Shown one piece after another: positions 3,224 through 54,806 of a stretch of 64,000 bases of DNA. This DNA comes from Candidatus Tenderia sp. (GTDB lineage: Bacteria; Pseudomonadota; Gammaproteobacteria; Tenderiales; Tenderiaceae): positions 9,504-73,503 of the forward strand of contig JANOSY010000088.1 in assembly GCA_031416075.1 (NCBI GenBank), read 5' to 3'. A program made the translations under genes and the position numbers. The notes under the pieces were generated by a model. The model did not search any database. It worked only from the letters and a program-made list of their open reading frames with translations, and had not been told where the DNA came from. Every line of letters begins with the position of its first letter. Position 1 is the first letter of the stretch.

Positions 3224-3237
3224 CGTTATTCAGCCGC

Positions 3238-35700: not shown

Positions 35701-38700
35701 GCCAGCCAACCGCATCTCCTTTGAAAGCAAAGGGGAGGACGAACCTGTCGCCAGTAATGCCACATCGGCGGGTCGAGCGACCAACCGCCGGGTAGAGCTT
35801 CATATATATAGCGTGATCAGCACCACAACCCCACATATCCACGGTACTGCCACCACCAGTGAGCGTCTGAGCAGTACCATCACCGGCCTTACACCCGGTG
35901 AACAGCCAATAACCACCGCGACCGTTACCACAACCACGGAGTACAACAGCCAGTGGCTCGCCAGCCAGACCGCCAGTATTGAGTGGCTGCTGCCCCAGGA
36001 GCGACCCGCGCTCCCCACCACCAACATCGCCATCAAACACCACAGCGACCAGAACGTCACCCTCACCCTCAATGGCCAGCCCGTGGCCGCCATGAACTTC
36101 AACGGCACCCTCAACAACAGCCATGGTGCTGCCGTCAGCCACTGGGCCGGGGTTGATCTGAACGAGGGCGACAACCTCTTTCATGCCACCATCAGCAATG
36201 CCCAAGGTGAGTTTATTCAACAACTTAACCGCAACCTGCACTACTCCAGCGCCCCCGTGCGGGCAGAGATTGTGCCAACGCTCTCCACCCTCATTGCCGA
36301 TAGCATCACCCCGCCGGTCATCGCCGTACGCCTGTATGACAAAGACAGCCACCCCATCCACGCCGGCATGGAGATTGAGTACCAAATCAGCCCACCGCAC
36401 CAGCCCGCCCAAGAGAGTTTTAATACCGACAACATGGTTGCCGCCCCTGGCAGACGCCACTACGCCACCTCCGACAATGATGGTCTCATCCTGATCAAAC
36501 TCGCCGCCACCAACAGCACCGATGATCTACGTCTGCAGCTGCCCCTGGCCCACAACCGGACCGTAGAGTTAAAGAGCCGTCTCCAGGCCAAGGCCCGCGA
36601 CTGGATACTGGTGGGGCTTGCCGAAGGGGAGGCCGGTTTTAACAGCCTGAGTGGCAATATGGAGGCGCTCGACGGCAACGCCGCCCAGGATCATCTCTAC
36701 CAGGACCAACGTATCGCCTTCTTTGCCAAAGGCCAGGTGCTGGGTAAATGGCTGCTGACCCTGGCCTACGACTCCGATAAAGCACAACCACAAAAACAGG
36801 GGAACGATCCAGCGCTGTTCCAGGCCATCGACCCCGGCAGCTACTACACCGTCTATGGTGATGCCGGTCAAAACGGTTTTGATGCCGCCAGCAGCAAAAA
36901 GCTCTACCTCAAGCTGGAGCGCAACGCCTTCTACCTGCTCTTTGGCGACTACCAGACCCAGCTCAGCGAGACCCGTCTGGCCCGCTACGACCGCACCCTG
37001 ACCGGCATAAAGTCCCGTTATCAGAATGAACAATACAACCTCATGCTCTTTATCAGCGAAAACAGCCAATCCTTTGCCAAGGATGAGCTGCGCGGCCAGG
37101 GCAGCACCGGCCCCTACCCGCTGTCACGCAGCAACGTCGCCCTCAACAGCGAAAAGGTAGTGCTGGAGGTGCGCGACCGTTTCCGCAGCGAACAGATTGT
37201 CAGCAGCACACTGCTGGCGCGCCACAGCGACTACGACATCAACTATCTGGAGGGCAACATCACCTTCCGCGAGCCGGTATTCAGCACCGATGCCAACCTC
37301 AATCCGCAATACATCGTCATCAAATATGAGTCCTACACCGGCGACAGCCAGACCACCATCGGTGGCCGGGCCGAGGTGAAGGTCAACGACCAGCTCAAGA
37401 TCGGCGTTACCCAAGTGAGTGAAGGGCGCGCTACAGGTGATGCCCTGCTCGGGGCCGCCGATCTGCAATACAAGTTCAACGATGCCACCACCCTGCGCCT
37501 TGAGACGGCCCGCAGCCTGATTGCCGACGAAGGCAGCGGCAACGCCTATCTTGCCGAAGTTGAACACCAGACCGTCAACAGCAGTAGCAAACTCTATCTG
37601 CTGGATAACGACACCCATTTTGGTCTGGGACAAACCAACGCCAGCGAAAATGGCATGTACAAACAAGGGGTTGAGACACAGCTGCGAGCCAGCGACAATA
37701 TCAACATCAAAGGCCAGCTCTACCGCCAGGAGAGCAGCCTCAGCCACGCCAGCCGTGACCTGGCCGAGGCACAGGGCGAGATCAGCCGCGGCACTACCCG
37801 GCTGCGCGCCGGCCTGCGTGAGGTGCAGGATCAGCGCGGCGACAACAGCCAGCAGCAGTCGGAACAGCTCACCACCGGCATCAGTCAACAGCTGCTGGAC
37901 AGTAAGGTGACCCTGCGGGCCGACCGCGAGATCAACCTCAACAATGGCAATGACAGCATCGACTTCCCCGACAAAACCCGGCTTGGGGCCGACTACCACA
38001 TCACCCAGAAGATCAGCCTGTTTGCCGAACAGGAGGTGGCCAACAGCGACCTCCGCGATACCCGCCAGCGCCGTCTTGGTATCAAATCAAACCCCTGGAA
38101 CGGCGCGGAGATTTACAGCGGCCTGAGCCACTCCAGCAGTGATAACGGCACTGCAACCAGCGCCAATGTCGCCGCCCGCCAGCGCTGGCAGCTCAACCCA
38201 CAGTGGAGCGTTGATGCCGGTATCGAGCAGTCCCAAACCCTAAGCCAGAATCTGAACCAGAACCAAAGCAGCGGCCCAACCCTCAGCCCACCTGCCGCCA
38301 CGCCGTTCAACCTCAACAGCGGATTTGCCATCGGCAGCAACGAAGATTTCAGCGCCGCCTCCTTGGGTGTCACCTATAGCGACAAAGGGTGGCTCTGGAG
38401 CAGCCGTGTCGAGTCGCGCACCGGTGATCTGAGTGACCGTCGCCGCCTTGCCACCTCAGTACAGACATCACCACACAACGACCTCTCCATGCTCGCCTCC
38501 CTCAACCTGCTCACCAGCAGCAGCGCCCAGGGTGAACAGCAGGATAGCTCAACGGTGCAGCTCGGGGCCGCCTACCGCCCCAGCAATAGCCGCTGGCTGC
38601 TGCTGGATAAACTGACCCTGAAAAAAGAGCGCCATAACAACAGCACCCTCGACAGCAGCGGCTGGCGCATCATCAACCTGTTCAATGCCAATTACCGAGA

Positions 38701-39073
38701 AGGGCGCTGGCAGACATCGCTGCAATACGGTGCCAAGAGTGTTAAAGAGACCATCGACGGCAACGAACATAACCAGTTTGTTGACCTCAGCGGCATCGAG
38801 AGCCGTTATGATCTAACGCCAGAGTGGGACATCGGCCTGCATGGCAACATCCTGCACGCCTGGCAGCTCAACCAATATAACTACAACAGTGGTGTCTCGG
38901 TAGGCCACACCGTGGCCAAAAACATCTGGCTGAGCCTTGGCTACAACTTCAACGGCTTCCGCGACAGCGACTTTTCGCGCAGCAGCTATACCAGTCAGGG
39001 GCTGTTCCTCCGTTTCCGGATGAAATTTGACCAAACCACCGTGAAAGAGGCGATCCAGTGGGCCAGCCAATGA
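32777..39073 (+). CDS. Giant (2098 aa) outer-membrane-associated protein: DUF11 repeats, internal OmpA-like domain, probable C-terminal beta-barrel
   Basis: One continuous ORF. DUF11-like segments include GDLIRYSVQVENSTATTLNDVVLTESLP and IPYQVTLENRGVSASNLRLTLMIP. There is an SdrD-B/CarboxypepD_reg-like segment, GVRIYMEDGRYAISDERGMFHFDNLTPGNH. The OmpA_C-like segment is IHAIGHSDSRD...NQILSEYRAHEVANQL...GRATNRRVELHIY. The last roughly 800 aa have alternating beta-strand character and end GLFLRFRMKF plus 16 aa. Confidence 0.75.
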   Translation: MSCTVVRAITALCPGPLAGQRAPLHLYITTLLGFLVLLWSTTTLAVPPGTIISNVASINYTIGGLPGLPLSSNIDQFTVVAAANTVDGTMSVAAPGGNLYAGSPRATTITLNNTGTTLLNNQQLTITAPLNSQVTLTGSGVTLAASMSSSTTTTYIFNVADLPVAGSQDLQLVLTAAPTAVSRPQTFTVAHSVDGTTLQQQSLTLSALPRTAARLEILQHSLSNRALSAIVNSTLIRGESGTFTPIAPPTLPEAPDRLVTDSPITLEPANVFSNIQTLFIRVTDLDQNLDSTVQESLDITIKLPDRDDYVTLRILETGIATGIFSGYVTFEKNSATSSGALPVKSNSKLLVSYTDTIDGDDSVAETVLIDPYGVVFDSATGQPLDGYTVQMVNTDTGLPATVYGDDGVSSYPATVITGSPVTDSSGNLYSYNTGEYRFPLAPAGNYRLVVTSPSSAQYRWPSTQSTEQLHNLSRSNLAITLGSRGERFPLLPGPPLHIDIPVDPLTTQLYLQRSANRESVATGDLIRYSVQVENSTATTLNDVVLTESLPHGFRLEPGSINMDNNPQQPATIEPQGTTFTLNLGAMIAGERRQIRYVSAVGAARQGLASSSSHARANSGAANSNHARHDAMVFDELMRGRALLLGQVIINPTDNDPTPASGLKGVRIYMEDGRYAISDERGMFHFDNLTPGNHLVQLDTATLPDHYSLVMGDQDTRNAHSPSSQFIDLQGGTLWRTEFHVARKPTPTGALSLQLSNTAPDSQGNIPYQVTLENRGVSASNLRLTLMIPATTHYQPGSSHVGGHPVGDPDIVGNVLIYRLNNDHPSGGWQRQLHLTLQGDTGNSASGDSRELTTKASLQFDTPAQQNQRLPLLQHTFTLTTEQVKQGEQKVLAESLTLDNFNGSSNDLSEEHKTVVQQLAERWAGQDIHIHAIGHSDSRDIIQKEKEDQRLFANNQILSEYRAHEVANQLRQQLSLPANRISFESKGEDEPVASNATSAGRATNRRVELHIYSVISTTTPHIHGTATTSERLSSTITGLTPGEQPITTATVTTTTEYNSQWLASQTASIEWLLPQERPALPTTNIAIKHHSDQNVTLTLNGQPVAAMNFNGTLNNSHGAAVSHWAGVDLNEGDNLFHATISNAQGEFIQQLNRNLHYSSAPVRAEIVPTLSTLIADSITPPVIAVRLYDKDSHPIHAGMEIEYQISPPHQPAQESFNTDNMVAAPGRRHYATSDNDGLILIKLAATNSTDDLRLQLPLAHNRTVELKSRLQAKARDWILVGLAEGEAGFNSLSGNMEALDGNAAQDHLYQDQRIAFFAKGQVLGKWLLTLAYDSDKAQPQKQGNDPALFQAIDPGSYYTVYGDAGQNGFDAASSKKLYLKLERNAFYLLFGDYQTQLSETRLARYDRTLTGIKSRYQNEQYNLMLFISENSQSFAKDELRGQGSTGPYPLSRSNVALNSEKVVLEVRDRFRSEQIVSSTLLARHSDYDINYLEGNITFREPVFSTDANLNPQYIVIKYESYTGDSQTTIGGRAEVKVNDQLKIGVTQVSEGRATGDALLGAADLQYKFNDATTLRLETARSLIADEGSGNAYLAEVEHQTVNSSSKLYLLDNDTHFGLGQTNASENGMYKQGVETQLRASDNINIKGQLYRQESSLSHASRDLAEAQGEISRGTTRLRAGLREVQDQRGDNSQQQSEQLTTGISQQLLDSKVTLRADREINLNNGNDSIDFPDKTRLGADYHITQKISLFAEQEVANSDLRDTRQRRLGIKSNPWNGAEIYSGLSHSSSDNGTATSANVAARQRWQLNPQWSVDAGIEQSQTLSQNLNQNQSSGPTLSPPAATPFNLNSGFAIGSNEDFSAASLGVTYSDKGWLWSSRVESRTGDLSDRRRLATSVQTSPHNDLSMLASLNLLTSSSAQGEQQDSSTVQLGAAYRPSNSRWLLLDKLTLKKERHNNSTLDSSGWRIINLFNANYREGRWQTSLQYGAKSVKETIDGNEHNQFVDLSGIESRYDLTPEWDIGLHGNILHAWQLNQYNYNSGVSVGHTVAKNIWLSLGYNFNGFRDSDFSRSSYTSQGLFLRFRMKFDQTTVKEAIQWASQ

Positions 39074-39092
39074 CAACCGCCACAACATCAAC

Positions 39093-42000
39093 ATGGACAG
39101 TACGATGAGATACGGACGTTTTATTCAGCTCTGCCTGCTGGCCACCCTGCTGCTGGTGGTACTTTTGCCTCGTCCAGGGGTAGCGGCCATCACCGCCACC
39201 ACCCTATTTGAAGGGTCAACGGATGGCGATGCCAGCGCTTATACTGGACCCTCACTCAGCCCGTCGGCCAACAACCTGATTCTCGTCTGGATAACCAATA
39301 CCCGCTCCTCCTCCCCCACCGTGCCCACCTTTACCGGTAACGGCCTCACCTGGGTGCAGGTCGCCACCGTCACCTGGGGCAGCAGCGGCTCCCCCACCGC
39401 ACGTACCACCCTGTTCCGGGCCATGGGATCCTCCCCCGCTACCGGGATCAACAGCATCGATTTTGCCGGCAATACCCAGACCGGCGTGGCGATGTCAATG
39501 ATCCAGTTCAACAACGTCGACATCACCGGCAGCAACGGTGCCAACGCCCTGGTTCAGAGTGTCACCGGCAGAACTGATAGCGCCTCCTCCACCGCCGGGC
39601 TGAGCCTCACCCTGGCAGCGCTGGGCAATGTTGCCAACGCCTCTGTGGGCGGCTTTTCCAACTTTATCAACTCCGCCACCTCCATCTCCCCAGGGTCCGG
39701 CTACACCGCCTCGTCCGGCACCACCTATCTGGCCCCCAGCATCAGCCTGCGCGCCGAGTGGAAGAGTGCGGGCAGCACCATCGTCAACGTCACACAGAGC
39801 GGTACCTCCCACATTGGCGGGATCGCCGTCGAACTCAAGGCCGACCTCTGTGCCGGCAATGTGGTCACCACCATCGCCAACAGTGGTGATGGCTCCCTGC
39901 GTGAATGTATCATCAAGGCCAACCTCAACCCCGGCACCACCATCACCTTCAACATTACCGCTGCGGCCAACCAATCTTCCGGTGCCAACTCATGGTGGCG
40001 TATCACCCCCACCACCGCGCTACCCACCATCACCGCTGCCAATACGGTGATTGATGCCACCACCCAGACCAGTAATCGTGGCAATACCAATACCCTCGGC
40101 CCGGAAGTTGAACTCAACGGTGCCACCGTCGGTGCCGGGGGGTGGGACGGTTTTGGTGTGGCTTCGCCAGCCACCGGAGTCATCATCCGCGGGTTCATCA
40201 TCAATCAGTGGTCAGGGTCAGGTATCTCACTCTGGAGCGGCAGCGGCACCATCAGGGGCAACTACATCGGTACCAACTACGCCGGTACCAGTGCCCTGGC
40301 CAATACCAGCTACGGCCTCTACCTCAATACCAATGGCAATACCGTCGGTGGCACCAGTGCTGCGGACCGTAACGTCATTGCCGGTAACGGCGGGCCTGGC
40401 ATCTACATTGTGAGCAACAGCAATACCGTGCAGGGCAACTACATCGGCGTCAACGCCAGTGCTGGGGCGATAGTTGCCAATAGTGGCCACGGCGTACAGA
40501 TACTCTCCGGTGCCACCGGCAATACCATTGGGGGCACAGCGGCGGGGGCAGGCAATGTGATTGCTGGCAACGGCGCTGATGGCATCAACCATAGTTCAAC
40601 AGGCAGCAATACCGTACAAGGCAACTACATCGGTACCAACGCCAGCAGCGCGACACTCTCTAATGGTGGCAATGGCATTGCCATCTCTGCCGGCACACTC
40701 AATGTGGGCAACGCCTCTGAATCCCAATCAAACATTATTGGCCCCAACAGTGGTGCGGGCATCAACCTGGCGGGCGGAACAGTGAATCTGGCAGGCAGTG
40801 TCACCGTGCGTGGCAACATGGCCCTGGCCAGCGGCACACTCGCCATGGGCAGCGCCACACTCAACCTCTCCGGTAACTGGAGCCGTACCAGCACCACCGT
40901 CACAACCGGCACCTCCACCGTGGTGCTCAACGGCACTGCCCTGCAGAGCCTGACCATGAACGGCAGTAACTTCAATAATCTGACCATCACCAACGGCAGT
41001 GTTGCAGGTATCAGTTTTAATGATGGTTTTAACGCCGCCAACATCACCAATACCACCCCCGCCTCCCGGCTGACCTTTAAGGCGGGCGCAACCTACACCC
41101 TCTCCGGCACCCTGACACTGGTCGGCAGCAGTGGCAACCAGATCATTCTGCTCAGCGACTCCCCCGGCACCCGCTTTACCCTGAACCCAACTGCTGGCGC
41201 GCAGAGTGTCAACTATGTCAACGTCAAGGATTCACAGGCCTCAACCAACAACATCACCGCCGATAACTCCACCAACAGTGGTGGCAATGATGATGCCGAG
41301 GCCGCACCACGCTGGGTCTTTAATGCCCCCGATACCACGCCGCCCGCCAGGATCATCGACCTGACGGTCACCTCCTCCACCACCTCATCCATCACCCTGA
41401 ACTGGACTTCACCGGGAGATGACAATAACAGTGGCACGGCTACCAGCTATGACCTGCGTTACTCCACCTCGCCCATCACGGCGGGCAACTGGGCCAGCGC
41501 CACACAGGCCGTTGGCGAACCAACACCCTTGGTGGCCGGTAGCAGCCAATCATTTAGCGTGACCGGCCTGGCCGCTGCCACCACCTACTACTTTGTAATG
41601 ACCACCAGCGATGAGGTCCCCAATACCTCCGCCCTATCTGACTCAGCGGTTGGCACCACCGGCGGCGGTGGTGGCGGCAATGTGAGCTACTACGCCAAAC
41701 GCAGTAACAGTGTCTCCATCGCCTCCGGCATCACCAGCAACAGCGGCTCCTGCGGCACAGATCCAACCGCCTACTACATTGAAGAGCTGTCAAAAAACAT
41801 CAGCGACATGTGTGTCACAGCAAATGCCTACCGCTGGGAGCAGTTGACGGCCGGCAGCTACTCGGACCACTACTTCAACACCGCCTATGTGGCCAATACC
41901 ACCGTTACCGGCGTCTCTTATCAGGTCACCATCCGCGACAGCGGAACAGTAGGTTTCCAGCTTTTTTATGTCACCTCCGGCGGTACCAAAACCTATCTTG

Positions 42001-44711
42001 GCACTGAAGTCACCCAGGTAAACAGTGGCATAGAAACCAATAACTACATCCTTAACCTCTCCGGCCAGTCTGGCACCATCCCCACCGGGGCAAAACTTGG
42101 GTTTCGTACCCGTGGTATCTCTGTCAGCCCCAGCTTCAGGATCTATGTGGGTAATCTGGATGGCAGGACACCCAGCAACCTCTCCGGTCATCTAATCGTC
42201 AACGAGGCCGTGGGCAGCAGCGATACCACCGCCCCGGCCAGTGTCACGCTCTCTACCGGTACCATCACCAACAACTCCGTGCTGCTGAACTGGGTATCAC
42301 CGGGGGATGATGGCAATACCGGCACCGCCCAGATCTACGACATCCGTTACTCCACCGCCGCCATCACGGCGGGCAACTGGGCCAGCGCCACCCAGGTAGG
42401 CGGGGAACCAACACCTCTGGTGGCGGGCACTGCCCAGACCTATACCGTGACCGGGCTGGCCCCCAATACCCTCTACTACTTTGCCATCAAAACCGGCGAC
42501 GAGACACCCAACTGGTCAGCGGTCTCCAACTCCCCCAGCGCCACCACCTACGATCCACCGGTGGGTGGCTTTAGTGTCGATAATGTGATCCCCGCCACCC
42601 AGATCAGCCAGTCCACCAACGGTTCAGGCATCATCACCATCAACTGGAAGGGGCGCGACAATCAGGCCAATAACGTCACACTCAAAACCTTTCAGTACAG
42701 CGTGGACGGTGGGGCTAGCTGGAACGCCCCCACCAACGGCGACGCCTCCGCCGCACTCTCCGCCACCTGGAGCAACAACGGCGGCAGTGGCTGGACCACC
42801 GCCACCACCTTGGCTGCCGCTCCTGTCAACAGCTTCACCTTCAATACCAAACATGCCAATGTCTCGGGGTTAAACGGGGTGGACCAGAACGATGTACGGG
42901 TCCGGTTTCTATTACGTGATGCCACTATGGATAGCCAGAGCTATGTCACCTCGACCGATTTTCGTATCGATGCCCTTGCCCCTACCGCGACCATTGGCAG
43001 CGCCATTTACGATGCTGCCAACGACCTGCTGACCATCACCGGCACCAACTTCACCACCATTGCGGCGGCCAGCACCGACATCAAAGCCTATGTCGACTGG
43101 AGCAAATTTGTCTGGGACATCAACGGCGACAACGCCACCACCACCGACATCAGCTTTGTGCTGGGTGACATCACCAGCCTGATCATCACCGACGATACCA
43201 CCATCACCCTGCAGTTCAGTGCCGCCAAAGGGATCGCCATCGAAGCCACCGCCGGCTACAGCACCACAGGCGGGGTCGACACCCTCGATGTTGCCGCCGG
43301 TTTTGCCCGAGACGACTACGGCAATGCCGCCACCACCGATGCGGTGGCCAACGGGCCACTCGTTACCACCTCGGTCTCAGGGATACTCTACGATACCGAC
43401 CGCACCACCAGCCTCGGTTTTGGCATGACGGTACGGCTACTCATCAACGGCGCCAGCATGGGCTCCACCACCACCGACGGCAGTGGTCGCTATACCTTCT
43501 GGAATAACGTCAGTGCCGGCAATGCCATTCTGGTCTACATCGACAATGGTGCCAGCACCGCCATCAGCGCCACCGTTACCGCCAACGCCAGCCTCTCGGA
43601 CTTTGATCTCTACGCCAGCCATCTGGTGGCCCGCCACGATAATGGGGGCGCACTCAGCAACGCCAACCTGGGAAGTGCCAAGGGGGCGTATGTCGACACC
43701 GATATTGTTTACTCCGTCACCGGCAGCGCGTTAACCGTCAGTGGCAGCGCCACCCGGCTACACATCCCGGCGGGCAAAAGTTTTACCCCGGAGGGCAACG
43801 TCACCACCCCGGCCATGAGTAATCTTGGCACCTTTGTCGGCGGCAGTGGTGCCATTACCATCAATGGCAACCTGAGTAACAGCGGCAGTTATACCGCCAG
43901 CAGCGCCACCACCACTGTTGCTGCTGACTTCAGCAACAGCGGTACCTTTACAGCCGCAGGCGGTACCGTGCTGCTTAACGGTATCAATCAAAACATCACG
44001 GGGACCACTACCTTCTTCAACCTGACCAAAACCGTGGCCACCGCCGACACCCTATTTTTCAGCGTCGGCTCCACCACCACCGTCACGGGTAGCGCCACCC
44101 TGCAGGGGGCATCGGGCCAGCCACTGAGTCTGCTCTCGATCACCCCCGGCAGCCGCTGGAACTTCAACATCGGCAGCAGCGCCACTAAGTCCTTCAGTTT
44201 TCTGAATGTGATCGACAGTGACGCCTCAGGCTCTGCCGCTGCCAAAAAACCGCTCATCGCCCAACCCAGCAACTCTACCGACAGCGGCAACAATGTGGAC
44301 TGGTTTGGCCTGCCCTCCATCTCGGTGATCAAATCCAGTACCCTGATATCCGACCCCGTTAACGGCACCACCAGCCCGCTGCATATCCCGGGGGCAATCC
44401 TTAACTATCAGATCCTCACCACCAACTCTGGCAACGGCTCACCCGATACCAATACCGTGGTGGTAACCGATGCACTGGACTCCAGCAAGCTTGAGTTTGA
44501 TGTCACCACCGGCATCACCTTTACCGCCAATACCTCGGGACTGACACTGGGCACAGTGAGTTATGCCCATACCGCCACCCCCACCACCTATACCTACACC
44601 CCCACCGGCCCCTACGACGCCAATGTGGCGGGCATCAAGATCACCACCAGCGGTACGTTTGCCAGCGCCGGTGCCAGCTTTACCCTCAACTTCCGCGTCC
44701 GCATAAAATAG
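39093..44711 (+). CDS. Giant (1872 aa) secreted beta-helix / FN3 / DUF11 surface protein (adhesin-like)
   Basis: Signal-like N-terminus RFIQLCLLATLLLVVLLPRPGVAA. It carries right-handed beta-helix repeats (NVIAGNGGPGIYIVSNSNTVQGNYIG, NVIAGNGADGINHSSTGSNTVQGNYIG), two FN3-like modules, and a C-terminal DUF11 domain (ISVIKSSTLISDPVNGTTSPLHIPGAILNYQILTTNSGNG). Confidence 0.75.
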   Translation: MDSTMRYGRFIQLCLLATLLLVVLLPRPGVAAITATTLFEGSTDGDASAYTGPSLSPSANNLILVWITNTRSSSPTVPTFTGNGLTWVQVATVTWGSSGSPTARTTLFRAMGSSPATGINSIDFAGNTQTGVAMSMIQFNNVDITGSNGANALVQSVTGRTDSASSTAGLSLTLAALGNVANASVGGFSNFINSATSISPGSGYTASSGTTYLAPSISLRAEWKSAGSTIVNVTQSGTSHIGGIAVELKADLCAGNVVTTIANSGDGSLRECIIKANLNPGTTITFNITAAANQSSGANSWWRITPTTALPTITAANTVIDATTQTSNRGNTNTLGPEVELNGATVGAGGWDGFGVASPATGVIIRGFIINQWSGSGISLWSGSGTIRGNYIGTNYAGTSALANTSYGLYLNTNGNTVGGTSAADRNVIAGNGGPGIYIVSNSNTVQGNYIGVNASAGAIVANSGHGVQILSGATGNTIGGTAAGAGNVIAGNGADGINHSSTGSNTVQGNYIGTNASSATLSNGGNGIAISAGTLNVGNASESQSNIIGPNSGAGINLAGGTVNLAGSVTVRGNMALASGTLAMGSATLNLSGNWSRTSTTVTTGTSTVVLNGTALQSLTMNGSNFNNLTITNGSVAGISFNDGFNAANITNTTPASRLTFKAGATYTLSGTLTLVGSSGNQIILLSDSPGTRFTLNPTAGAQSVNYVNVKDSQASTNNITADNSTNSGGNDDAEAAPRWVFNAPDTTPPARIIDLTVTSSTTSSITLNWTSPGDDNNSGTATSYDLRYSTSPITAGNWASATQAVGEPTPLVAGSSQSFSVTGLAAATTYYFVMTTSDEVPNTSALSDSAVGTTGGGGGGNVSYYAKRSNSVSIASGITSNSGSCGTDPTAYYIEELSKNISDMCVTANAYRWEQLTAGSYSDHYFNTAYVANTTVTGVSYQVTIRDSGTVGFQLFYVTSGGTKTYLGTEVTQVNSGIETNNYILNLSGQSGTIPTGAKLGFRTRGISVSPSFRIYVGNLDGRTPSNLSGHLIVNEAVGSSDTTAPASVTLSTGTITNNSVLLNWVSPGDDGNTGTAQIYDIRYSTAAITAGNWASATQVGGEPTPLVAGTAQTYTVTGLAPNTLYYFAIKTGDETPNWSAVSNSPSATTYDPPVGGFSVDNVIPATQISQSTNGSGIITINWKGRDNQANNVTLKTFQYSVDGGASWNAPTNGDASAALSATWSNNGGSGWTTATTLAAAPVNSFTFNTKHANVSGLNGVDQNDVRVRFLLRDATMDSQSYVTSTDFRIDALAPTATIGSAIYDAANDLLTITGTNFTTIAAASTDIKAYVDWSKFVWDINGDNATTTDISFVLGDITSLIITDDTTITLQFSAAKGIAIEATAGYSTTGGVDTLDVAAGFARDDYGNAATTDAVANGPLVTTSVSGILYDTDRTTSLGFGMTVRLLINGASMGSTTTDGSGRYTFWNNVSAGNAILVYIDNGASTAISATVTANASLSDFDLYASHLVARHDNGGALSNANLGSAKGAYVDTDIVYSVTGSALTVSGSATRLHIPAGKSFTPEGNVTTPAMSNLGTFVGGSGAITINGNLSNSGSYTASSATTTVAADFSNSGTFTAAGGTVLLNGINQNITGTTTFFNLTKTVATADTLFFSVGSTTTVTGSATLQGASGQPLSLLSITPGSRWNFNIGSSATKSFSFLNVIDSDASGSAAAKKPLIAQPSNSTDSGNNVDWFGLPSISVIKSSTLISDPVNGTTSPLHIPGAILNYQILTTNSGNGSPDTNTVVVTDALDSSKLEFDVTTGITFTANTSGLTLGTVSYAHTATPTTYTYTPTGPYDANVAGIKITTSGTFASAGASFTLNFRVRIK
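41331..41660 (+). repeat. FN3-like module, copy 1 (internal duplication within the 1872-aa gene)
   Basis: DTTPPARIIDLTVTSSTTSSITLNWTSPGDDNNSGTATSYDLRYSTSPITAGNWASATQ...TTYYFVMTTSDEVPN. It shares a near-identical nucleotide stretch (catcacggcgggcaactgggccagcgccac) with copy 2. Confidence 0.8.
42222..42548 (+). repeat. FN3-like module, copy 2
   Basis: DTTAPASVTLSTGTITNNSVLLNWVSPGDDGNTGTAQIYDIRYSTAAITAGNWASATQ...TLYYFAIKTGDETPN. Confidence 0.8.
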
Positions 44712-47058: not shown

Positions 47059-47445
47059 ATGAACAAGATTATTGCCACGGCTGTACTACTCATCATCCTT
47101 ACGGGCTGCAGCCAAATGCCCACCACCACACATACCGGTGGCCAGATCAACCACGTTGTGCTGATCTGGCTCAAAGATGCCGGAAACCCAGAGCAGCGTC
47201 ACCAGATTATCGAAGCAACCCGCACACTGGAACAGCTACCTGGCATTATCTCTGTGCATGTTGGCGCGGTCATACCCAGTGACCGCAAAGTTGTGGATGA
47301 TAGCTTTGACATCGGCGTGCATATGCTCTTCAGCGACCGTCAGAGCATGGAACATTATGGTAACCATCCCGAACATCAACGCATTCTCAACCAGATTGTC
47401 ATGCCACTGACAGAGCGCATACTCATTTATGACTTTGCACAATGA
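47059..47445 (+). CDS. Dabb (stress-responsive alpha/beta barrel) domain lipoprotein
   Basis: 128 aa. Lipobox LLIILTGC. The Dabb-like core is INHVVLIWLKD...HVGAV...FDIGVHMLFSDRQSMEHYGNHPEH. Confidence 0.8.
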   Translation: MNKIIATAVLLIILTGCSQMPTTTHTGGQINHVVLIWLKDAGNPEQRHQIIEATRTLEQLPGIISVHVGAVIPSDRKVVDDSFDIGVHMLFSDRQSMEHYGNHPEHQRILNQIVMPLTERILIYDFAQ

Positions 47446-48004
47446 TCTGACAAACCCCCATCACCATAGTAACAATATCAACAACATGCCCTCCGCTTGT
47501 TACCGTTAATAGTTAATATAAAAACCACTTTAAAATATGGCTTTTATAATTAATGAGTATTTCAAACCACTACGACAAATAAAATAAATTTTATAAATCA
47601 TAAATACCGCAAAACAATTACCCATCACACCTGTGAAACCTCACTCAAATACCTTTATTTAACACCTGTTTTTTTCAATTAAAACAAGAACATTAATGCA
47701 CTTTTATTGTTTATTTATAACGCTAAAACAACATAAATAACCATATTAAAAAAGACTTTATTAATACCCATATATGAAAAAAATATCACTCAACACAAAC
47801 TCAATATGTTTAGCACAAAATAACTTAATGAAAATTTAAGTTTTACGGTGTAGGATAAATTTCACCCTCAGCGACATAACCAGTTATTTCTTGGAATGTT
47901 GCACTCTCGGGATCACGAGAAGAGCAGAGGGGGGAGTACTGATATTTGAATGGTTCAAATATTAGAGGACTATGATTTAAATCACATTTACTAAGGAGAT
48001 TATT

Positions 48005-48127
48005 ATGGGTGGCGGCGGCGGTATGGGCGGTGGCGGTATGGGCGGTGGCGGCGGCGGTGGTATGGGCGGCGGCGGCGGTGGCGGCATGGGCGGCGGTGGC
48101 GGCGGTGGCGGTGGCGGCGGTATGTAG
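48005..48127 (+). CDS. Micro-ORF 1: 40-aa Gly/Met-only peptide MGGGGGMGGGGMGGGGGGGMGGGGGGGMGGGGGGGGGGGM
   Basis: Hand-translated. AAGGAG at 47993-47998, a 6-nt spacer, ATG at 48005, TAG at 48125-48127. Followed by a structured 3' region and terminator. A paralogue lies at 48540. Absent from the ORF track, which shows only the antisense artefact 47843..48139. Confidence 0.6.
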   Translation: MGGGGGMGGGGMGGGGGGGMGGGGGGGMGGGGGGGGGGGM

Positions 48128-48208
48128 CTCCCGGCTCACTATGCACCCTCTCTCTCATGTGAGGGGCTCATAGCACAGTTGTAATGGCATATTGCCATGC
48201 GATGAAAT

Positions 48209-48236
48209 GGGGGGGCATTATGTCCCCCTATTTTTT
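48209..48236 (+). terminator. Rho-independent terminator of micro-ORF 1 unit
   Basis: GGGGGGGCA-tta-TGTCCCCC followed by TATTTTTT. Confidence 0.7.
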
Positions 48237-48539
48237 ATGCCAAAAAACAACACCTACCCCCTATCCTCGCCCTCCATATCCCGTGTGCTCAATAGCTTAA
48301 TTACACACAAAAAATAAATCATTTTTCCTGTGCGGAATATATTTTCTATTTCCCAACAAATTTAAGGGAAGGTTAACATACCCGATGTAGTATCGATAAC
48401 ACCTTAAACGTTGTGCCTGCTTTTTGGCTTAACGACTTCTCTGAAACTATGACGAGATAATAAGGCAGTACCGGTCTTTGAGTTATCAACGACCCAATAT
48501 AAATATCAATTACTTTTAAATAAAACTAAGGAGTTAATC

Positions 48540-48608
48540 ATGGGTGGAATGAACGGTGGTCGTGGTGGTATGGGTGGCGGCGGTGGCGGTGGTGGCGGCG
48601 GCATGTAA
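48540..48608 (+). CDS. Micro-ORF 2: 22-aa Gly/Met-rich peptide MGGMNGGRGGMGGGGGGGGGGM
   Basis: Hand-translated. AAGGAG at 48528-48533, a 6-nt spacer, ATG at 48540, TAA at 48606-48608. It has the same SD geometry, the same MGG start and the same GGM-stop end as micro-ORF 1. Confidence 0.6.
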   Translation: MGGMNGGRGGMGGGGGGGGGGM

Positions 48609-48687
48609 TATGCCCGCGTCACGCACTCCCTCTCACTATTGAGAGGCATGTTGCGTACCGCTATGGCTAACGCCATACAATAAAAAT

Positions 48688-48716
48688 GGGAGGGCATGTC
48701 TGCCTCCCATTTTTTT
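48688..48716 (+). terminator. Rho-independent terminator of micro-ORF 2 unit
   Basis: GGGAGGGCA-tgtc-TGCCTCCC followed by ATTTTTTT. Confidence 0.7.
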
Positions 48717-48800
48717 CGTCAATAATTCCCTGGCCTACGCCATTACTCGATACTCAAATAACCCACCGCCTTACCCTTCATCTCTCAAAAATTTCTTTTA

Positions 48801-50576
48801 TTATGCCTCGTTATCAGACTGCCACAGCACTGAAACCTTATATTCTGGATGGGATATATAGAGTTCATCATGTGTACCTACTGTAATTGAGCCATTGCCA
48901 TTAAAATAGAAGACTCTGTCGGCATTGCGAATAGACGAATAACGATGGGCGATAACAAAAGTCGTGCGACCTGTACGTAATGTATCCAGGGCAGCCACTA
49001 CCTCTTTCTCTGATTGGCTATCCAATGCTGAAGTTGCCTCATCCATAATTAAAAATGGAGCATCCATTAACATCGCCTGTGCAATTGCAATACGTTGATA
49101 CTGTCCACCTGATAGCTCAACACCGCCGGATCCTACGCGAGTATCAAGCCCATCACTCAACGCTGTAATAAATTGCCATGCGCCACTCACTTCACAGGCG
49201 TGTACCATCTGCGACTCAGTGGCATCCGGCTTCACTAATAGTAAGTTGGTGCGAATCGTATCGTGCATGATGAACGGGGTTTGCCAAATGATTGAGAATT
49301 GCTCACGTAATGAGGCGATAGTTACAGTGCGAATATCCACCCCATCAATTGTAATACGGCCTTGCTGAGGGTCATGAAAACGCATCAGCAGCCGGGCAAG
49401 TGTTGATTTTCCAGCACCGCTTGCTCCAACCAGGGCGACTGTTTCTCCGGCGCGCACTTCAAGATTGACACCTTGTAAGAGCAGCTCCCCTCCCGTGTAG
49501 GCAAAATCTACACTCTCAAAACGAATACCTCCCTCAGTCACAACTAATGGCTCTGCATCAACAATATCCTGGGTCTCAGGTTTTAGATCAAATATCGCCA
49601 AAACACGCTGCGCAGCCCCAAAATCACCTTGTAACTGCATTGGTGCTTGTGCAAACCCACGCACCGGCACCGAGAGATACCCCAAGTAGAGTAGGAAACT
49701 GACCATCGCCCCTATACCAAAACCGTGACTCTCTATCCGATCGATCCCGACGAACACTATCACGATCCCACAAAAATAGATCATGGCCGCCAGTGTGACC
49801 GTGAACCCTTGGTCCAACCAGCGCATCTTCATGCCCCAGTAACGTGCCTGTTCGTAACACTCACCATGCCTAGCCGCCATGCGTGTCTCGCCCCGGACTG
49901 AGCTTATGCCACGCAGATTGCTTAAGACCTGTTCTTCAAAGGCTAATAGTTTGCCCGCTTCATGAAAAAATCGTTGCGATGCCTTACGCTTGCGCGGGCC
50001 GAATAACCCCTGATGTATGACAAACAGTGGCACAAACATTAACGCCACCAGGGCCATATACCAATCGATCCAAAACAACATGCCACAATAAAAAAATAGG
50101 GTTAACAGGTGAGAAACAAGAAAGAAGGGGACTTCGAGTACCATGTTCTGCACACTGTCCACATCACTGCTAAGGCGGGCAAGCACGTCCCCCTTCTGTA
50201 GATGTGCAGCACCGGGCGCAGAGACATCAAACAGATGACGCAGGGCAGCTTGACGCAGCCGCCCCACAAAACGAAGCCCCAACCAGTTAGCCATCAGGGT
50301 GGAGGAGAAGTGAAATCCCTGGTTGATGACAACAACCAGTATCAACCAGAGCAGCACCGATTTAACCTGATCAAAACGCCCGGCCTGTAAGTGGTCAAAC
50401 GGTAACCCTATCAGCCAGACCATGGCGGTATTGGTCACGGTTAACCCTACAATAGTCCCTATGACCAAACTGACAAACACCACATCGGCACGTGCGTATG
50501 GCAAAAAATGGCGGAAGACTTGCCAGAATTGGGACCTTTGCACGACAGTTTCGCCCTGCTGAGGGGTATCACTCAT
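48801..50576 (-). CDS. ABC exporter, fused permease/ATPase (MsbA-type half transporter)
   Basis: 591 aa. The N-terminal half has six TM spans. Walker A GASGAGKST, signature LSGGQYQRIAIA, Walker B FLIMDEATSALD. There is no N-terminal C39 peptidase domain. The start overlaps the asnB-like stop (ATGA). Confidence 0.9.
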   Translation of the reverse strand: MSDTPQQGETVVQRSQFWQVFRHFLPYARADVVFVSLVIGTIVGLTVTNTAMVWLIGLPFDHLQAGRFDQVKSVLLWLILVVVINQGFHFSSTLMANWLGLRFVGRLRQAALRHLFDVSAPGAAHLQKGDVLARLSSDVDSVQNMVLEVPFFLVSHLLTLFFYCGMLFWIDWYMALVALMFVPLFVIHQGLFGPRKRKASQRFFHEAGKLLAFEEQVLSNLRGISSVRGETRMAARHGECYEQARYWGMKMRWLDQGFTVTLAAMIYFCGIVIVFVGIDRIESHGFGIGAMVSFLLYLGYLSVPVRGFAQAPMQLQGDFGAAQRVLAIFDLKPETQDIVDAEPLVVTEGGIRFESVDFAYTGGELLLQGVNLEVRAGETVALVGASGAGKSTLARLLMRFHDPQQGRITIDGVDIRTVTIASLREQFSIIWQTPFIMHDTIRTNLLLVKPDATESQMVHACEVSGAWQFITALSDGLDTRVGSGGVELSGGQYQRIAIAQAMLMDAPFLIMDEATSALDSQSEKEVVAALDTLRTGRTTFVIAHRYSSIRNADRVFYFNGNGSITVGTHDELYISHPEYKVSVLWQSDNEA

Positions 50577-52591
50577 ATGTGTGAATCAGTAAAACAGCGC
50601 GCCGTTTTGTTGATAAACAGGTCGTACAGAATCTGCACCGTCAGGATCGAAAACAGCACCCACTCCTGCCTCATTGCCCGGTAATAGGCATTGCCATCAG
50701 GGGGTGTGGGCAGGTTCACCAACTCATCCAACAGCGCAGTCACCACTTGAGGATTAAAGATGCCCGCCTGTTGAATCTTCTCTTCAGAGAGAAATTGCGA
50801 CAACCGGTCTGCATTTTTTGGCGTAAAAAACCATTCACGAATAGGGGTGTAAAAGGCACGTTTTTTATACGAAGTGGGATGTTCTGGTAACTTTGGCAAC
50901 ATTAACTTACGCAAAATATACTTCTCATCCAGGCCATTCAGCTTGAGTGCTGGTGGCACCTTTGCCGCTAACTCCACCAGTTTGTGATCCAGAAATGGGA
51001 CCCGCGCCTCCACACCGTTAGCCATGGCCAGTCGATCTGCCCGCCACAATATCCAACCTGGCAGACGGGTCTTTATCTCCAGATACAGGGACTGGTTGAG
51101 TGGATGCAACCCTTCCAGCCTGGGCTTTAAGGTGGTGATCAACTCTGCCATCTGCTGATCGTGGTCGGCGGACTGCTCCAGAAAATCATCGCTGAAGATC
51201 CCTTCACTCCCTTCACGAAGGATTTGCCAGAAGTCATACCAGACGGGATAACAACCAAATTGCGCCACCACCTTCTGCTGCTGCTGCGACTCATGTAAAC
51301 GAGCCAGCATCTGCAGATAATCAGGGGCAAAATCATTGCCAAAATCATCTAAATAGTAACGCAGCCGCTCCTCCTGCCCCCCCTTCTCATTACCCCACTG
51401 ACGGATGTAATCCTGGCGGAAGCAGTCATACCCCCCCAATATTTCATCTGCACCTTCACCGGTATACACCACTTTAAACTGATTTTTACGCACCAGCTCC
51501 GACAACATCAGCAGCGGGATATCCAGCGCCATACGTTGTGGCTGCTCGACGCTGTACATCGCCTCCACCAACACATCCAGATAATCATCACTGCGCTGGT
51601 CATCCATATACAGGTCATGCAGCTCAACACCGATGTGGTCGGCAATACTGCTAGTAATTGGATACTCGTCATTAGCACTATTGGAAAAGCGGATAGTAAA
51701 TGCCTTTACACTCTGCTCCGCAGACTGCTGCAACCAATAGGTGGTAGTGGCCGAGTCAACACCGCCGGAAAGATAGGAGCCAATAGGTACCTCGCCAATC
51801 ATGTGTGAGCGCACAGCGTCCTGCAAAACACCATCAAACTCTGCCAACCACTGCTCTTCACTGCGATCCTCATACTCACCCTCTCGGGGAAACTCCAGAT
51901 CCCAATAACAGTCAATTTGCGGCTGCTTACCTGCCACCAGTGTCATGGTATGGCCGGGGGCCAACTCAACCACCCCGGCAAAGAGCGTATGTGGCGCAAT
52001 ATTAAATTGATAGGAGAAAAAATTCCGTACCGATTGGGGATTAAAGGCGGGAGTGATCTGCCCCGATGCAAACAGCGATTTCACTTCTGAGGCACCATAC
52101 AGGGTCGTGCCGTCCCAATGGTAAACCAGCGGTTTGATACCCAACCGGTCCCTGGCCACAAATAGTTCGTTAGTTAATGAGTCATGAATAGCAAACGCAA
52201 ACATTCCCCGCAGGCGCGGCACACACTGCGCGCCATCGCGCTGGAACAGATGGAGAATCACCTCCGTATCCGATTGCGTCTGAAACAGAACGCCCTCCTG
52301 CTCCAGTTCAGCCCGCAACACCTTGTAATTATAGATTTCACCGTTATAAACAATGGCATAACGATCATCAATGCTTAACATCGGCTGGGCACCGCCACGA
52401 ATATCAACGATACTCAAACGGGTATGGCCTAACGCCACACCACCACGCACCAAATGGTTCTGTGCATCGGGTCCCCGATGTATCAGCGCATGCACCATGC
52501 GCCCTATTATTAATTCACTCGACTCACTCTGCGCCAACGGCTCAGCGGATTGATGATGGCCAGCACGATAGATGAAACAGATCCCACACAT
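50573..52591 (-). CDS. Asparagine synthetase B-like glutamine-dependent amidotransferase
   Basis: MCGICFIY carries the N-terminal nucleophile Cys2 when the start is the second Met at 52591. GHTRLSIVD, and the PP-loop SYLSGGVDS. About 672 aa. Confidence 0.88.
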   Translation of the reverse strand: MCGICFIYRAGHHQSAEPLAQSESSELIIGRMVHALIHRGPDAQNHLVRGGVALGHTRLSIVDIRGGAQPMLSIDDRYAIVYNGEIYNYKVLRAELEQEGVLFQTQSDTEVILHLFQRDGAQCVPRLRGMFAFAIHDSLTNELFVARDRLGIKPLVYHWDGTTLYGASEVKSLFASGQITPAFNPQSVRNFFSYQFNIAPHTLFAGVVELAPGHTMTLVAGKQPQIDCYWDLEFPREGEYEDRSEEQWLAEFDGVLQDAVRSHMIGEVPIGSYLSGGVDSATTTYWLQQSAEQSVKAFTIRFSNSANDEYPITSSIADHIGVELHDLYMDDQRSDDYLDVLVEAMYSVEQPQRMALDIPLLMLSELVRKNQFKVVYTGEGADEILGGYDCFRQDYIRQWGNEKGGQEERLRYYLDDFGNDFAPDYLQMLARLHESQQQQKVVAQFGCYPVWYDFWQILREGSEGIFSDDFLEQSADHDQQMAELITTLKPRLEGLHPLNQSLYLEIKTRLPGWILWRADRLAMANGVEARVPFLDHKLVELAAKVPPALKLNGLDEKYILRKLMLPKLPEHPTSYKKRAFYTPIREWFFTPKNADRLSQFLSEEKIQQAGIFNPQVVTALLDELVNLPTPPDGNAYYRAMRQEWVLFSILTVQILYDLFINKTARCFTDSHI

Positions 52592-52661
52592 CACAGACTC
52601 TCACGTAAACAATCCCTGCACACAACGCCGGTCAGCAACAACCGGAACCCGCCTGATACCA

Positions 52662-52686
52662 TAAAAAAAGGGGCCAATGGCCCCTT
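52662..52686 (-). terminator. Rho-independent terminator after pnp
   Basis: The minus strand reads GGGGCC-att-GGCCCC followed by TTTTTTTAT. Confidence 0.75.
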
Positions 52687-52715: not shown

Positions 52716-54806
52716 TTAAACCTCTTCCGTGACGGCCTTGATGCTTAAACGGATACGACCCTGCTTATCCACCTCAAGCACTTTAACCTTAACCACTTCA
52801 CCTTCGGTAAGCTTATCAGCCACATTCTCCACACGCTCATTGGAAATCTGTGAGATGTGAACCAAGCCATCCTTGCCCGGAAGGATGGTGACAAAAGCAC
52901 CAAAGTCCATCAACTTGGCCACTTTACCATCGTAAATCTTGCCGACCTCAACATCAGCAACCAACTCAAGAATCCGCTGCTTCGCCGCCTCACCCGCCGC
53001 CCGGTCAACCGAGGCGACCTTAACGGTGCCATCATCATCCAGATCAATCGATGTGCCTGTCTCTTCGGTCAGTGCACGAATAGTTGCGCCCCCTTTACCA
53101 ATAACATCGCGGATACGGTCCGGATTAATCTTGAAGGTGATAATCCGTGGTGCATATTCAGACAACTCTTCACGAGGTGCAGTGATCGCTTTATCCATTT
53201 CACCCAGAATAAACAGACGGCCATCTTTTGCCTGAGAGAGTGCTGCCTGCATGATCTCACGGGTAATCCCGTCAATCTTGATATCCATCTGCAACGCAGT
53301 GATACCTGATGACGTACCGGCGACCTTAAAGTCCATATCACCCAGATGATCTTCATCACCCAGAATATCGCTCAACACGGCAAAACGGTCACCCTCTTTA
53401 ATCAGCCCCATCGCAATACCCGCTACCGGCGCTTTTAAAGGGATACCCGCATCCATCATCGCCAAACTACTGCCACAGACAGAGGCCATTGAACTGGAGC
53501 CGTTGGATTCAGTAATCTCAGAGACCACACGAACAACGTAAGGGTAGTTTGCCATATCAGGCATCACCGCTTGAACACCACGTTTGGCCAGACGGCCATG
53601 GCCGATCTCACGACGTTTAGGGCTACCCACCATGCCGGTTTCACCAACACTGTAAGGGGGGAAGTTGTAGTGGAACATAAACGGGTCTTTACGCTCACCT
53701 TCGATGGCATCGATCATCTGCGCATCTTTGCCAGTACCGAGGGTGGTCACCACCAGCGCCTGTGTTTCACCACGGGTAAAGAGTGCTGAACCATGTGTAC
53801 GTGGCAACACACCCACACGAATGGTGATCGGACGAACAGTTTTGGTATCACGTCCATCGATACGCGGCTGACCATCAATAACACGGCCACGCACCACCTT
53901 GCTCTCAAGCACGCCAATCATCTCACCTACGTCAGCCGCGCTCCACTCAGGTGTCTCACCACCACACAACGTAGTAACCGCCTGACTGCGAATATCATCC
54001 AGCGCCGCATACCGATCCTGCTTTACCTTAATCTGATAGGCTTCGTTCAACTGTGTCGCAACAACACCGCTCACCGCGGACTCCAGCGCGCTGTTCTTGA
54101 CAGGCGACTGCCACACCCAAGCCTCAACACCCACTTCATCGCACAGCTCACGAATAGCCTTGATCACAACACACATCTGTTCATGACCAAACATCACCGA
54201 ATCCAACATCACCTGTTCTGACAGCTCATGGGCTTCAGACTCCACCATCAATACCGCACCCTCAGTACCGGCAACCACCAGATCCAACTGCGAGGCCACC
54301 AGCTGAGACTTGCTCGGATTCAGCAAAAACTCACCATCGACATAACCAACACGGGCAGCACCGATCGGTCCCTTGAAAGGAACACCTGCCAGCATCAATG
54401 CCGCTGAAGCACCGATCAGCGAGGGAATATCAGGATCAATTTCAGCATCCAGTGAGACAACGGTGGCAACAATCTGGACTTCATTAGTGAAGCCGTCGGG
54501 AAACAGTGGACGTATCGGGCGATCAATCAGACGAGAAGTCAGTGTCTCTTTTTCCGTAGGACGCCCTTCGCGCTTAAAAAACCCGCCAGGAATCTTACCC
54601 GCTGCGTAGGTTCTCTCTTGATAGTTGACAGTTAGTGGAAAGAAGTCACGCCCCGGAACAACCTCTTTACGTGCAACGGCAGTCACCAGAACGGTCGTAT
54701 CTCCCATGCTGCACATCACAGCACCACTAGCCTGTCTGGCAATCTCACCAGTCTCTATCGTGACAGTGTGATTACCATACTGAAAAACCTTTTTAATGGG
54801 TTTCAT
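52716..54806 (-). CDS. pnp: Polyribonucleotide nucleotidyltransferase (PNPase)
   Basis: 696 aa. [30 protein letters not shown], with KH and S1 domains at the C-terminus. Confidence 0.97.

Follow-up and report, generated by a model that had tools for sequence, protein, structure and literature searches.

The pairing of a small peptide gene with the gene of a dedicated ATP-binding cassette (ABC) exporter is a layout common to bacteriocins, to microcin J25 with McjD, and to a-factor with Ste6. The clusters of microcin J25 and other lasso peptides (McjA, McjC, McjD) combine a small peptide gene with an AsnB homologue and an ABCB exporter of ~580 aa which has no peptidase domain. In class II microcins and bacteriocins (CvaB), the gene for an unmodified Gly-rich peptide, highly expressed and provided with its own terminator, is linked to a dedicated ABC exporter. 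Here, we analyze a locus of Candidatus Tenderia sp. that has the same cargo-exporter layout. Within a window of 64,000 nucleotides (the whole stretch analyzed; contig JANOSY010000088.1), the genes for an AsnB-family glutamine amidotransferase of 672 aa (50573..52591, minus strand) and an ABCB-type (type IV) half-transporter exporter of 591 aa (48801..50576, minus strand) converge on two micro open reading frames (micro-ORFs) on the plus strand, the products of which are rich in Gly and Met (G/M). The exporter and the G/M micro-ORFs are conserved together in relatives, while AsnB is separable from them. The reading that we favour, with a probability of roughly 60%, is that the ABC protein exports the unmodified G/M peptides and that AsnB is an ordinary amidotransferase gene which became adjacent through the history of one clade.

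Despite its resemblance to a microcin J25 cluster, the window locus has no McjB/RRE gene, and its two micro-peptides contain no Asp or Glu residue with which an isopeptide bond could be formed. The AsnB protein has the Cys nucleophile and remains below the cut-off of the lasso-cyclase model NF033535 (200.1 bits vs 525), and the module does without AsnB elsewhere. An assignment of AsnB as a lasso cyclase was thus rejected. Unlike the class II microcins, the locus has no double-glycine leader, C39 peptidase domain, CvaA-like adaptor or immunity gene, and we know of no bacteriocin composed of Gly and Met only.

Two other described systems are similar in the peptide rather than in the gene arrangement. 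MrpX from Azospira suillum is a periplasmic methionine-rich peptide that acts as a scavenger of hypochlorite, with a periplasmic Met-sulfoxide reductase restoring its reduced form (PMC4436054). The G/M peptides are likewise short, Met-rich and presumably unstructured, with a proposed stoichiometric role outside of the cytoplasm, although the analogy is a functional one only. MrpX reportedly has a Sec signal peptide and belongs to a sigF/nrsF-yedY regulon, whereas the peptides described here are ~72% Gly, have no signal sequence and occur together with an ABC exporter, and no Msr gene is consistently adjacent. Genes related to oxidative or envelope stress, encoding a Dyp peroxidase, a cytochrome c peroxidase, MsrB, DsbD, DegP and HSP20, are present in some of the relatives' loci. 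The composition of the G/M peptides is near-identical to that of the C-terminal (GGM)n tail of GroEL, MGGMGGMGGM... (PMC11978752, PMC12571646), but this tail belongs to a cytosolic 57-kDa chaperonin, while the G/M stretch here is a free-standing gene product. A full-text literature search yielded only papers on GroEL/Hsp60/Hsp70 tails and on MrpX; neither free-standing G/M micro-proteins nor the ABC subfamily were described there. The module would appear to follow the theme of a small peptide with a dedicated ABC exporter, for which we found no prior description in this form, and the composition of its putative cargo would be unprecedented.

The module was defined as an ABC protein containing the motif SF[LIV][LIV]YLGYLSVPVRG together with a stand-alone micro-ORF, located within 2.5 kb, that has a G+M content of at least 75% and a Shine-Dalgarno (SD) sequence. 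In the window, the motif is present in the ABC protein and is accompanied by two micro-ORFs, which lie 193 and 674 nt past the ABC stop. A scan of metagenome contigs with the motif SF[LIV][LIV]Y.GY..xP.RG gave 54 more loci, with ABC proteins 39–71% identical to that of the window, and the family set comprises 63 loci, i.e., 62 fetched (designated by L numbers) and the window. Thirty loci have 1 kb or more of sequence on each side of ABC (ABC 43–100% identical); of these, 28 carry a stand-alone G/M micro-ORF within 2.5 kb and 29 within 5.3 kb. The fetched family sequence (0.51 Mb) contains 45 stand-alone micro-ORFs with at least 75% G+M, and a looser scan added two with a Pro/Ala-rich centre. 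As a control, 80 unrelated ABC-exporter loci (1.37 Mb; exporters 29–35% identical, from a contig scan that picked generic Walker/signature motifs) were searched and contained no G/M micro-ORF. The initial annotation had tentatively linked the AsnB-ABC operon as a whole to the micro-ORFs; this holds for the ABC gene but not for AsnB, which about 56 of the 63 loci lack. ABC homologues without AsnB, such as those of L007 (72% identity), L149 (68%), L008 (65%) and L009 (56%), have a convergent G/M micro-ORF 96–200 nt past the ABC stop, e.g., MGGMGGMGGGGMGGMGGMGGMGGGRMGGGRGGRGR.

Convergent micro-ORFs located 3' of the ABC gene account for 37 cases, and co-oriented ones, 160–480 nt 5' of the gene, for 11. 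When the ABC proteins are clustered at 65% identity, a micro-ORF is seen in 14 of 22 clusters; the others, save L130, are loci in which one or both sides have hardly any flanking sequence or none. The exceptions without a micro-ORF are L130 and L103, the latter disrupted by an insertion sequence and just under the flank threshold. In L103, a transposase-like ORF, partial or disrupted (2679–3299, minus strand), lies directly past the ABC stop, at the site occupied by the micro-ORF in relatives, and the insertion probably displaced or destroyed it. Other neighbours vary by lineage and include pnp, groES-groEL (12 loci), a QseB/PmrA-like response regulator, a fused MFS/spermidine synthase, a DUF255 thioredoxin-like protein, cysN, Dyp peroxidase and other peroxidases, and an FAD monooxygenase. 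Because all other flanking genes change between lineages, the micro-ORF is the sole constant partner of the ABC subfamily. These observations support a module of ABC gene and G/M micro-ORF, retained through at least 14 divergent ABC lineages despite changes of position and orientation.

In the window, micro-ORF 1 (48005..48127, plus strand) encodes 40 aa consisting solely of Gly and Met, and micro-ORF 2 (48540..48608, plus strand) encodes the 22-aa peptide MGGMNGGRGGMGGGGGGGGGGM and ends with TAA. Each is preceded by AAGGAG 6 nt upstream, and both peptides have Met as the last residue, in agreement with the initial annotation. Across the family, an AGGAG-type SD is located 6–8 nt ahead of the ATG in 45/45 true micro-ORFs (the raw count was 43/47, the misses being two GroEL tails and two micro-ORFs with a start further upstream). 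Not one of the 1056 Gly codons is GGG (GGC 0.49, GGT 0.42, GGA 0.09), compared with a GGG fraction of 0.20 in the adjoining ABC genes, and the stop codon is TAA in 40 of the 45. In the inspected loci, including the co-oriented L138, a 3' untranslated region (3'UTR) of ~65–130 nt with hairpins is followed by an intrinsic terminator; a simple scan of the 110 nt downstream gave a terminator for 19/45. Several paralogous micro-ORFs are present per locus in the window, L003, L010, L101 and L111. The peptides range from 11 to 62 aa (median 32), are composed of ~72% Gly and ~21% Met (~93% G+M) and lack a signal peptide; the C-terminal residue is Met in 34/45 and Arg in 8/45. Eight G/M peptides gave no NCBIfam match at E values up to 10. 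The antisense poly-Pro reading (MPPPPPIPPP...) was ruled out, since it is the G/M strand that carries the SD, the ATG and the TAA stop. Given their SD sequences, codon bias, TAA stops and own terminators, the micro-ORFs are real, independent small genes, which are probably translated very abundantly.

The ABC protein contains PF00664 (the six-helix ABC_membrane domain, with a match from residue 38) and PF00005 (ABC_tran). The motifs of its nucleotide-binding domain (NBD) are canonical, i.e., Walker A GASGAGKST, the signature LSGGQ, Walker B FLIMDEATSALD, and the H-loop IAHR. It misses every NCBIfam cut-off, including those of MsbA TIGR02203 (354.9 vs 602) and PRK11176 (290.6 vs 867), and the curated cut-offs, together with the gene context, rule out its identity as the MsbA lipid A flippase. 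A peptidase-containing ABC transporter (PCAT) was likewise rejected: Pfam gave no C39 peptidase match in the protein, and its TIGR01193 score is 210 vs a cut-off of 524. No gene for a membrane-fusion or outer-membrane partner was found adjacent to the exporter. Its PDB matches are Sav1866, MsbA and ABCB1. The protein is a homodimer-type ABCB exporter belonging to an apparently undescribed gammaproteobacterial subfamily.

The AsnB ORF (50573–52594, minus strand) begins with GTG, and an internal ATG at 52591 yields the 672-aa protein with the N-terminus MCGICFIY. This ATG was taken as the start, rather than the GTG one codon upstream, because the Cys has to occupy position 2. The Cys2 nucleophile (MCGI) and the SGGVDS PP-loop reported in the initial annotation were both recovered, the latter within YLSGGVDSATT. 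Pfam identifies GATase_6/7 and Asn_synthase domains. The protein passes the NCBIfam asparagine-synthase equivalog TIGR01536 (436.3 bits vs a cut-off of 267.1), and it fails the XrtA/PEP-CTERM amidotransferase model TIGR03108 (429 bits vs 817) and the NAGGN amidotransferase model (352 vs 570). Neither exosortase nor exopolysaccharide (EPS) genes were found in the window region or in the examined relatives' neighbourhoods, and this, with the sub-cut-off score, rules out the XrtA/PEP-CTERM identity. The N-terminal Cys nucleophile is invariant across 13 homologues. Alignment with the AsnB of E. coli K-12 (32% identity) indicates that Cys1, R49, N74, E76, D98, SGGxDS, and E348/D351 are all kept, so that the glutamine-site and PP-loop residues are the same as in E. 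coli AsnB and in long-form AsnB-like proteins (TIGR01536). In contrast, the window protein has a ~100-aa insertion, a different C-terminal region and a K449 to R replacement, and the alignment is poor around T322/R325, a region which bears on the question of the acceptor substrate. The nearest solved structures are the hydroxyamidotransferase 7ylz and AsnB 1ct9. AsnB is a catalytically intact, glutamine-dependent, ATP/PP-loop amidotransferase and, by itself, an ordinary one.

AsnB adjoins the ABC gene in 5 of the 63 loci, i.e., the window and L001–L004, which form a single clade with AsnB at least 78% identical. In L001 (AsnB 86% identical) and L003 (78%), the order pnp, terminator, AsnB, ATGA, ABC is preserved. 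Orthologues at 75% (L146), 73% (L005), 72% (L145), 64% (L006) and 56% (L147) identity stand alone, and these five share a different synteny consisting of AsnB, a cold-shock-domain gene (csp), a convergent mutM, DUF4340, and a gliding-type ABC-2 system. The surroundings of all five are free of ABCB exporter genes and of G/M ORFs. Catalytic residues are identical between the ABC-linked and the stand-alone copies. About 90% of the ABC/micro-ORF loci lack AsnB, and the closest outgroup (L007, L103, L135) has ABC immediately after pnp. Since loci with ABC and micro-ORF but without AsnB are the majority, AsnB is not part of the core of the module. The simplest reading of these arrangements is that the csp-mutM site is ancestral and that AsnB came to adjoin ABC only in the window clade; we infer that the gene was relocated rather than duplicated. 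The csp-mutM region is not present within the 64-kb window, and no single assembly containing both a stand-alone AsnB and an ABC module without AsnB was found. The L006 contig (GCA_975852575.1, labelled Kaarinaea lacus) is assigned to a cyanobacterial assembly, yet shares the AsnB-csp-mutM synteny of L005 and L145–L147; L147 is labelled a gammaproteobacterial metagenome-assembled genome by one source. The L006 contig is probably a contaminant or misbinned.

In the favoured reading, the G/M peptides would be made in bulk in the cytoplasm, from genes that have a promoter and a terminator of their own. The ABC dimer would then pump the leaderless and unmodified peptides over the inner membrane into the periplasm, where they might act stoichiometrically as a sacrificial methionine sink, a soft-metal buffer, or a flexible segment similar to the GroEL tail. 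AsnB would be co-expressed with the exporter in the window clade and would not be required for the peptide system. We infer the cargo-exporter relationship, and with it peptide export and an extracytoplasmic role, because a leaderless, strongly expressed peptide gene adjoins, in one orientation or the other, the gene of a dedicated ABCB exporter. A protein of 300–345 aa with internal G/M tracts and a (GGM)n-like C-terminal tail is encoded near ABC, adjoining it or a few kb away, in five loci: L003 (18934–19968, minus strand), L008 (8882–9787, minus strand), and, as homologues, L133, L137 and L140. The L003 copy has a signal-peptide-like N-terminus, and Pfam and NCBIfam gave no match for this protein. 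The occurrence of such a secreted G/M-tract protein near ABC suggests that G/M segments are used outside of the cytoplasm in these organisms.

Several points weigh against this reading. The evidence for transport of the peptides is gene association, and the likeness of the ABC protein to Sav1866, MsbA and ABCB1 is generic and gives no clue to the substrate. A trend between the charge of the peptide and that of the ABC transmembrane domain is weak (rho -0.35, p 0.04, phylogeny uncorrected, few lineages), and the charge of the NBD gives a similar one. The AsnB protein is a long form, with the ~100-aa insertion and K449 to R, so its acceptor substrate is not fixed by sequence, and the ATGA coupling with ABC is kept in every clade member seen. 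The genomes of the window clade may keep a second AsnB at csp-mutM, a region that the window does not contain. In addition, L143 and L107, which belong to a second, unrelated lineage, have an AsnB homologue ~1.6 kb past the micro-ORF, behind a periplasmic-binding-protein gene. This proximity exceeds what pure chance would readily give, and a facultative role of AsnB may be conceivable.

In the initial annotation, AsnB was proposed to amidate the carboxylate of the C-terminal Met, in a pathway like that of ribosomally synthesized and post-translationally modified peptides (RiPPs), with the coupled ABC exporter secreting the product. Amidation, or another modification of the peptides, is consistent with the intact glutaminase and PP-loop sites, with the ATGA coupling conserved in the window and L001–L004, and with the AsnB homologue near the module in L143 and L107. 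AsnB-like enzymes do amidate thiopeptide C-termini (TsrC-type), and the AsnB/ABC pair is accompanied by micro-ORFs wherever the flank is sufficient (window, L001, L003, L004); the pair was found neither without micro-ORFs nor in polysaccharide or lipid loci. Elsewhere, however, AsnB is dispensable to the ABC/micro-ORF association, being absent from most modules, including the closest outgroup, and its orthologues are found by themselves in a different conserved gene context. For a tailoring amidotransferase of the TsrC type, enzyme and precursor should co-occur consistently, whereas here they do so in 5/63 loci of one clade. The C-terminal Met does not follow the presence of AsnB either, as it is equally common in clades that lack the gene (34/45 peptides overall). 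No other maturation genes are located within about 10 kb, and no residue changes set the ABC-linked AsnB copies apart from the stand-alone ones. We regard amidation followed by export as improbable. Still less credible is a non-peptide substrate for the pair, in which case AsnB would amidate, for example, a lipid-linked or envelope precursor and ABC would then flip it, comparable with the mDAP-amidating AsnB/LtsA and with MsbA-like flippases, the micro-ORFs being functionally unrelated. The two genes are coupled, MsbA-type flippases and exporters of glucan or heterocyst glycolipid rank highest among the curated ABC matches, and the XrtA/PEP-CTERM model scores AsnB nearly as well as the asparagine-synthase model. 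But all of these exporter models, as well as the XrtA/PEP-CTERM model, score far under their cut-offs, and polysaccharide, lipid or exosortase genes were not found nearby. Moreover, the neighbour kept by the ABC subfamily is the micro-ORF and not AsnB, and the control exporters lack G/M ORFs.

An explanation in which the G/M peptide is not cargo has more to recommend it, but is still unlikely. The peptide might be a cytoplasmic regulator or sensor, either as a plug or activator of ABC or through translation that reports Gly/Met-tRNA or one-carbon status, while ABC exports something else. In 11 loci the micro-ORF is 160–350 nt upstream of ABC on the same strand, as would be expected of a leader, a gene for a QseB/PmrA-like response regulator is adjacent in one clade, and the peptides have no export signal of any kind. 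In the 37 convergent cases, on the other hand, the micro-ORF is downstream, 3' of ABC, and cis attenuation is therefore impossible, and even in the co-oriented L138 a strong terminator separates micro-ORF and ABC. The peptides also lack the hydrophobic or amphipathic segments typical of small proteins that bind transporters. Because of the strong expression signals, i.e., extreme translational optimization, and the several divergent paralogues per locus, an abundant product fits better than a regulator. Export of unmodified G/M peptides thus remains the reading that we prefer.

The AsnB and ABC genes are placed after the rimP-nusA-infB-rbfA-truB-rpsO-pnp cluster. The pnp gene (52716–54806) is separated from AsnB by its own strong intrinsic terminator, GGGGCC-ATT-GGCCCC followed by T7 (52663..52685, minus strand), an equivalent of which is also present in L003 and L007. 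Because of this terminator, the AsnB-ABC pair represents a separate unit and not the tail of the nusA-infB-pnp operon, and co-transcription of pnp and ABC was ruled out by the intervening terminators. The TGA of AsnB and the ATG of ABC share 50573..50576 (minus strand), where the junction reads ...cacacatATGAgtgat; the same 4-nt overlap is present in L001–L004. No SD was recognized upstream of the ABC ATG when the junction was read. Considering the ATGA overlap and the absence of an SD, translational coupling from AsnB to ABC is plausible. At the other end, ~85 nt beyond the ABC stop codon (48801–48803), ABC and micro-ORF 2 have in common a bidirectional terminator, A5-TGGGAGG...CCTCCCA-T7 (48682..48716), which can end both convergent units because its hairpin is bordered by an A-run at one end and by a T-run at the opposite end. 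Both the overlap and the distance of 85 nt had been noted in the initial annotation and are correct. The segment is a transcription unit of two genes, an asnB-like one followed by abc, which have different histories. Its neighbours in the window include pnp, rpsO, truB, a Dabb lipoprotein, an M23 peptidase and xseA.

Non-coding features surround the micro-ORFs. An AT-rich, ORF-poor spacer of ~560 nt (47446–48004) separates micro-ORF 1 from the gene of the Dabb-domain lipoprotein; around this spacer the GC fraction is 0.48, against 0.59–0.60 in the four preceding 2-kb windows (38–46 kb). Judged by eye, the promoters of the micro-ORFs may be of either the sigma-70 or a sigma-32-like (CCATGT) type. 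The intrinsic terminator of micro-ORF 1 is located at 48209..48236 (plus strand), preceded in the 3'UTR by a conserved ATGGC...GCCAT hairpin at 48184..48198 (plus strand), the counterpart of which for micro-ORF 2 is at 48662–48677. The general form of this hairpin, (Y)RTGGC-loop-GCCAY(R), often TGTGGCTAAnCCCACA, recurs just ahead of micro-ORF terminators in distant ABC clades: it was observed at both positions in the window and in L001, L003, L007, L008, L099, L102, L115, L132, L133, L141 and L149. The core of 5 bp is nearly invariant, the closing pair is A-U, G-U or G-C, and the covariation is modest. A search of 47400–48900 against Rfam gave nothing real, and no match to the hairpin in the micro-ORF region of the window.

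Several observations concern the neighbours of the module. The groES-groEL genes are directly 5' of ABC in L010, L095, L099, L105, L108, L117, L121, L123, L127, L130, L132 and L139, and in these 12 loci the groEL product ends in a (GGM)n tail of its own. Co-transcription of groESL and ABC was ruled out, as each of the 11 spacers read contains a terminator of groEL. The long groEL-ABC spacer of L105, L108, L121 and L130 contains a conserved non-coding element (at about 5400–6300 in L121), ttgcttgacgcc...tacactc followed by gggcggc...ggcatgggtgtcctcttgtt, which resembles a promoter with a small structured RNA; Rfam at the gathering threshold gave no match in the groEL-ABC spacers of four relatives. 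The fused MFS/spermidine-synthase membrane protein (NF037959; ~1000–1100 aa) is encoded in nine loci, namely L010 (17763–20849), L101 (5569–8856), L091, L105, L108, L111, L121, L127 and L142, and in L010 and L101 its gene is divergent from the micro-ORFs. Elsewhere in the window, 30935–44711 (plus strand) contains two huge ORFs of 2098 and 1872 aa with DUF11, OmpA, CarboxypepD_reg and Fn3 domains, which are preceded by a 185-aa ORF with DUF11 and a 402-aa ORF without a Pfam match. This region appears to resemble a surface-protein locus and to be unrelated to the AsnB-ABC unit and the micro-ORFs.

The combination of AsnB and an ABC exporter beside small peptide genes tempts one to annotate a lasso or RiPP cluster, and comparative genomics makes this label misleading because the conservation of the module does not extend to AsnB. 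More tentatively, and with considerable doubt on our part, the ABC gene and the G/M micro-ORFs might constitute an unrecognized envelope system, widespread in uncultured sediment Gammaproteobacteria, in which disordered periplasmic peptides would serve as a Met sink, a Cu(I)/Ag(I) buffer or a GroEL-tail-like holdase, and to which AsnB was added in the window clade, where it may cap or service the peptide. If the exporter does handle the G/M peptides, these would represent a new class of ribosomal peptide cargo, ~93% Gly and Met, leaderless and apparently unmodified, served by a new dedicated ABC subfamily that is present in many environmental Gammaproteobacteria and has been overlooked by gene callers and NCBIfam. 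The module would also offer a testable handle on the function of free (GGM)n, a question that is still open for the GroEL tail.

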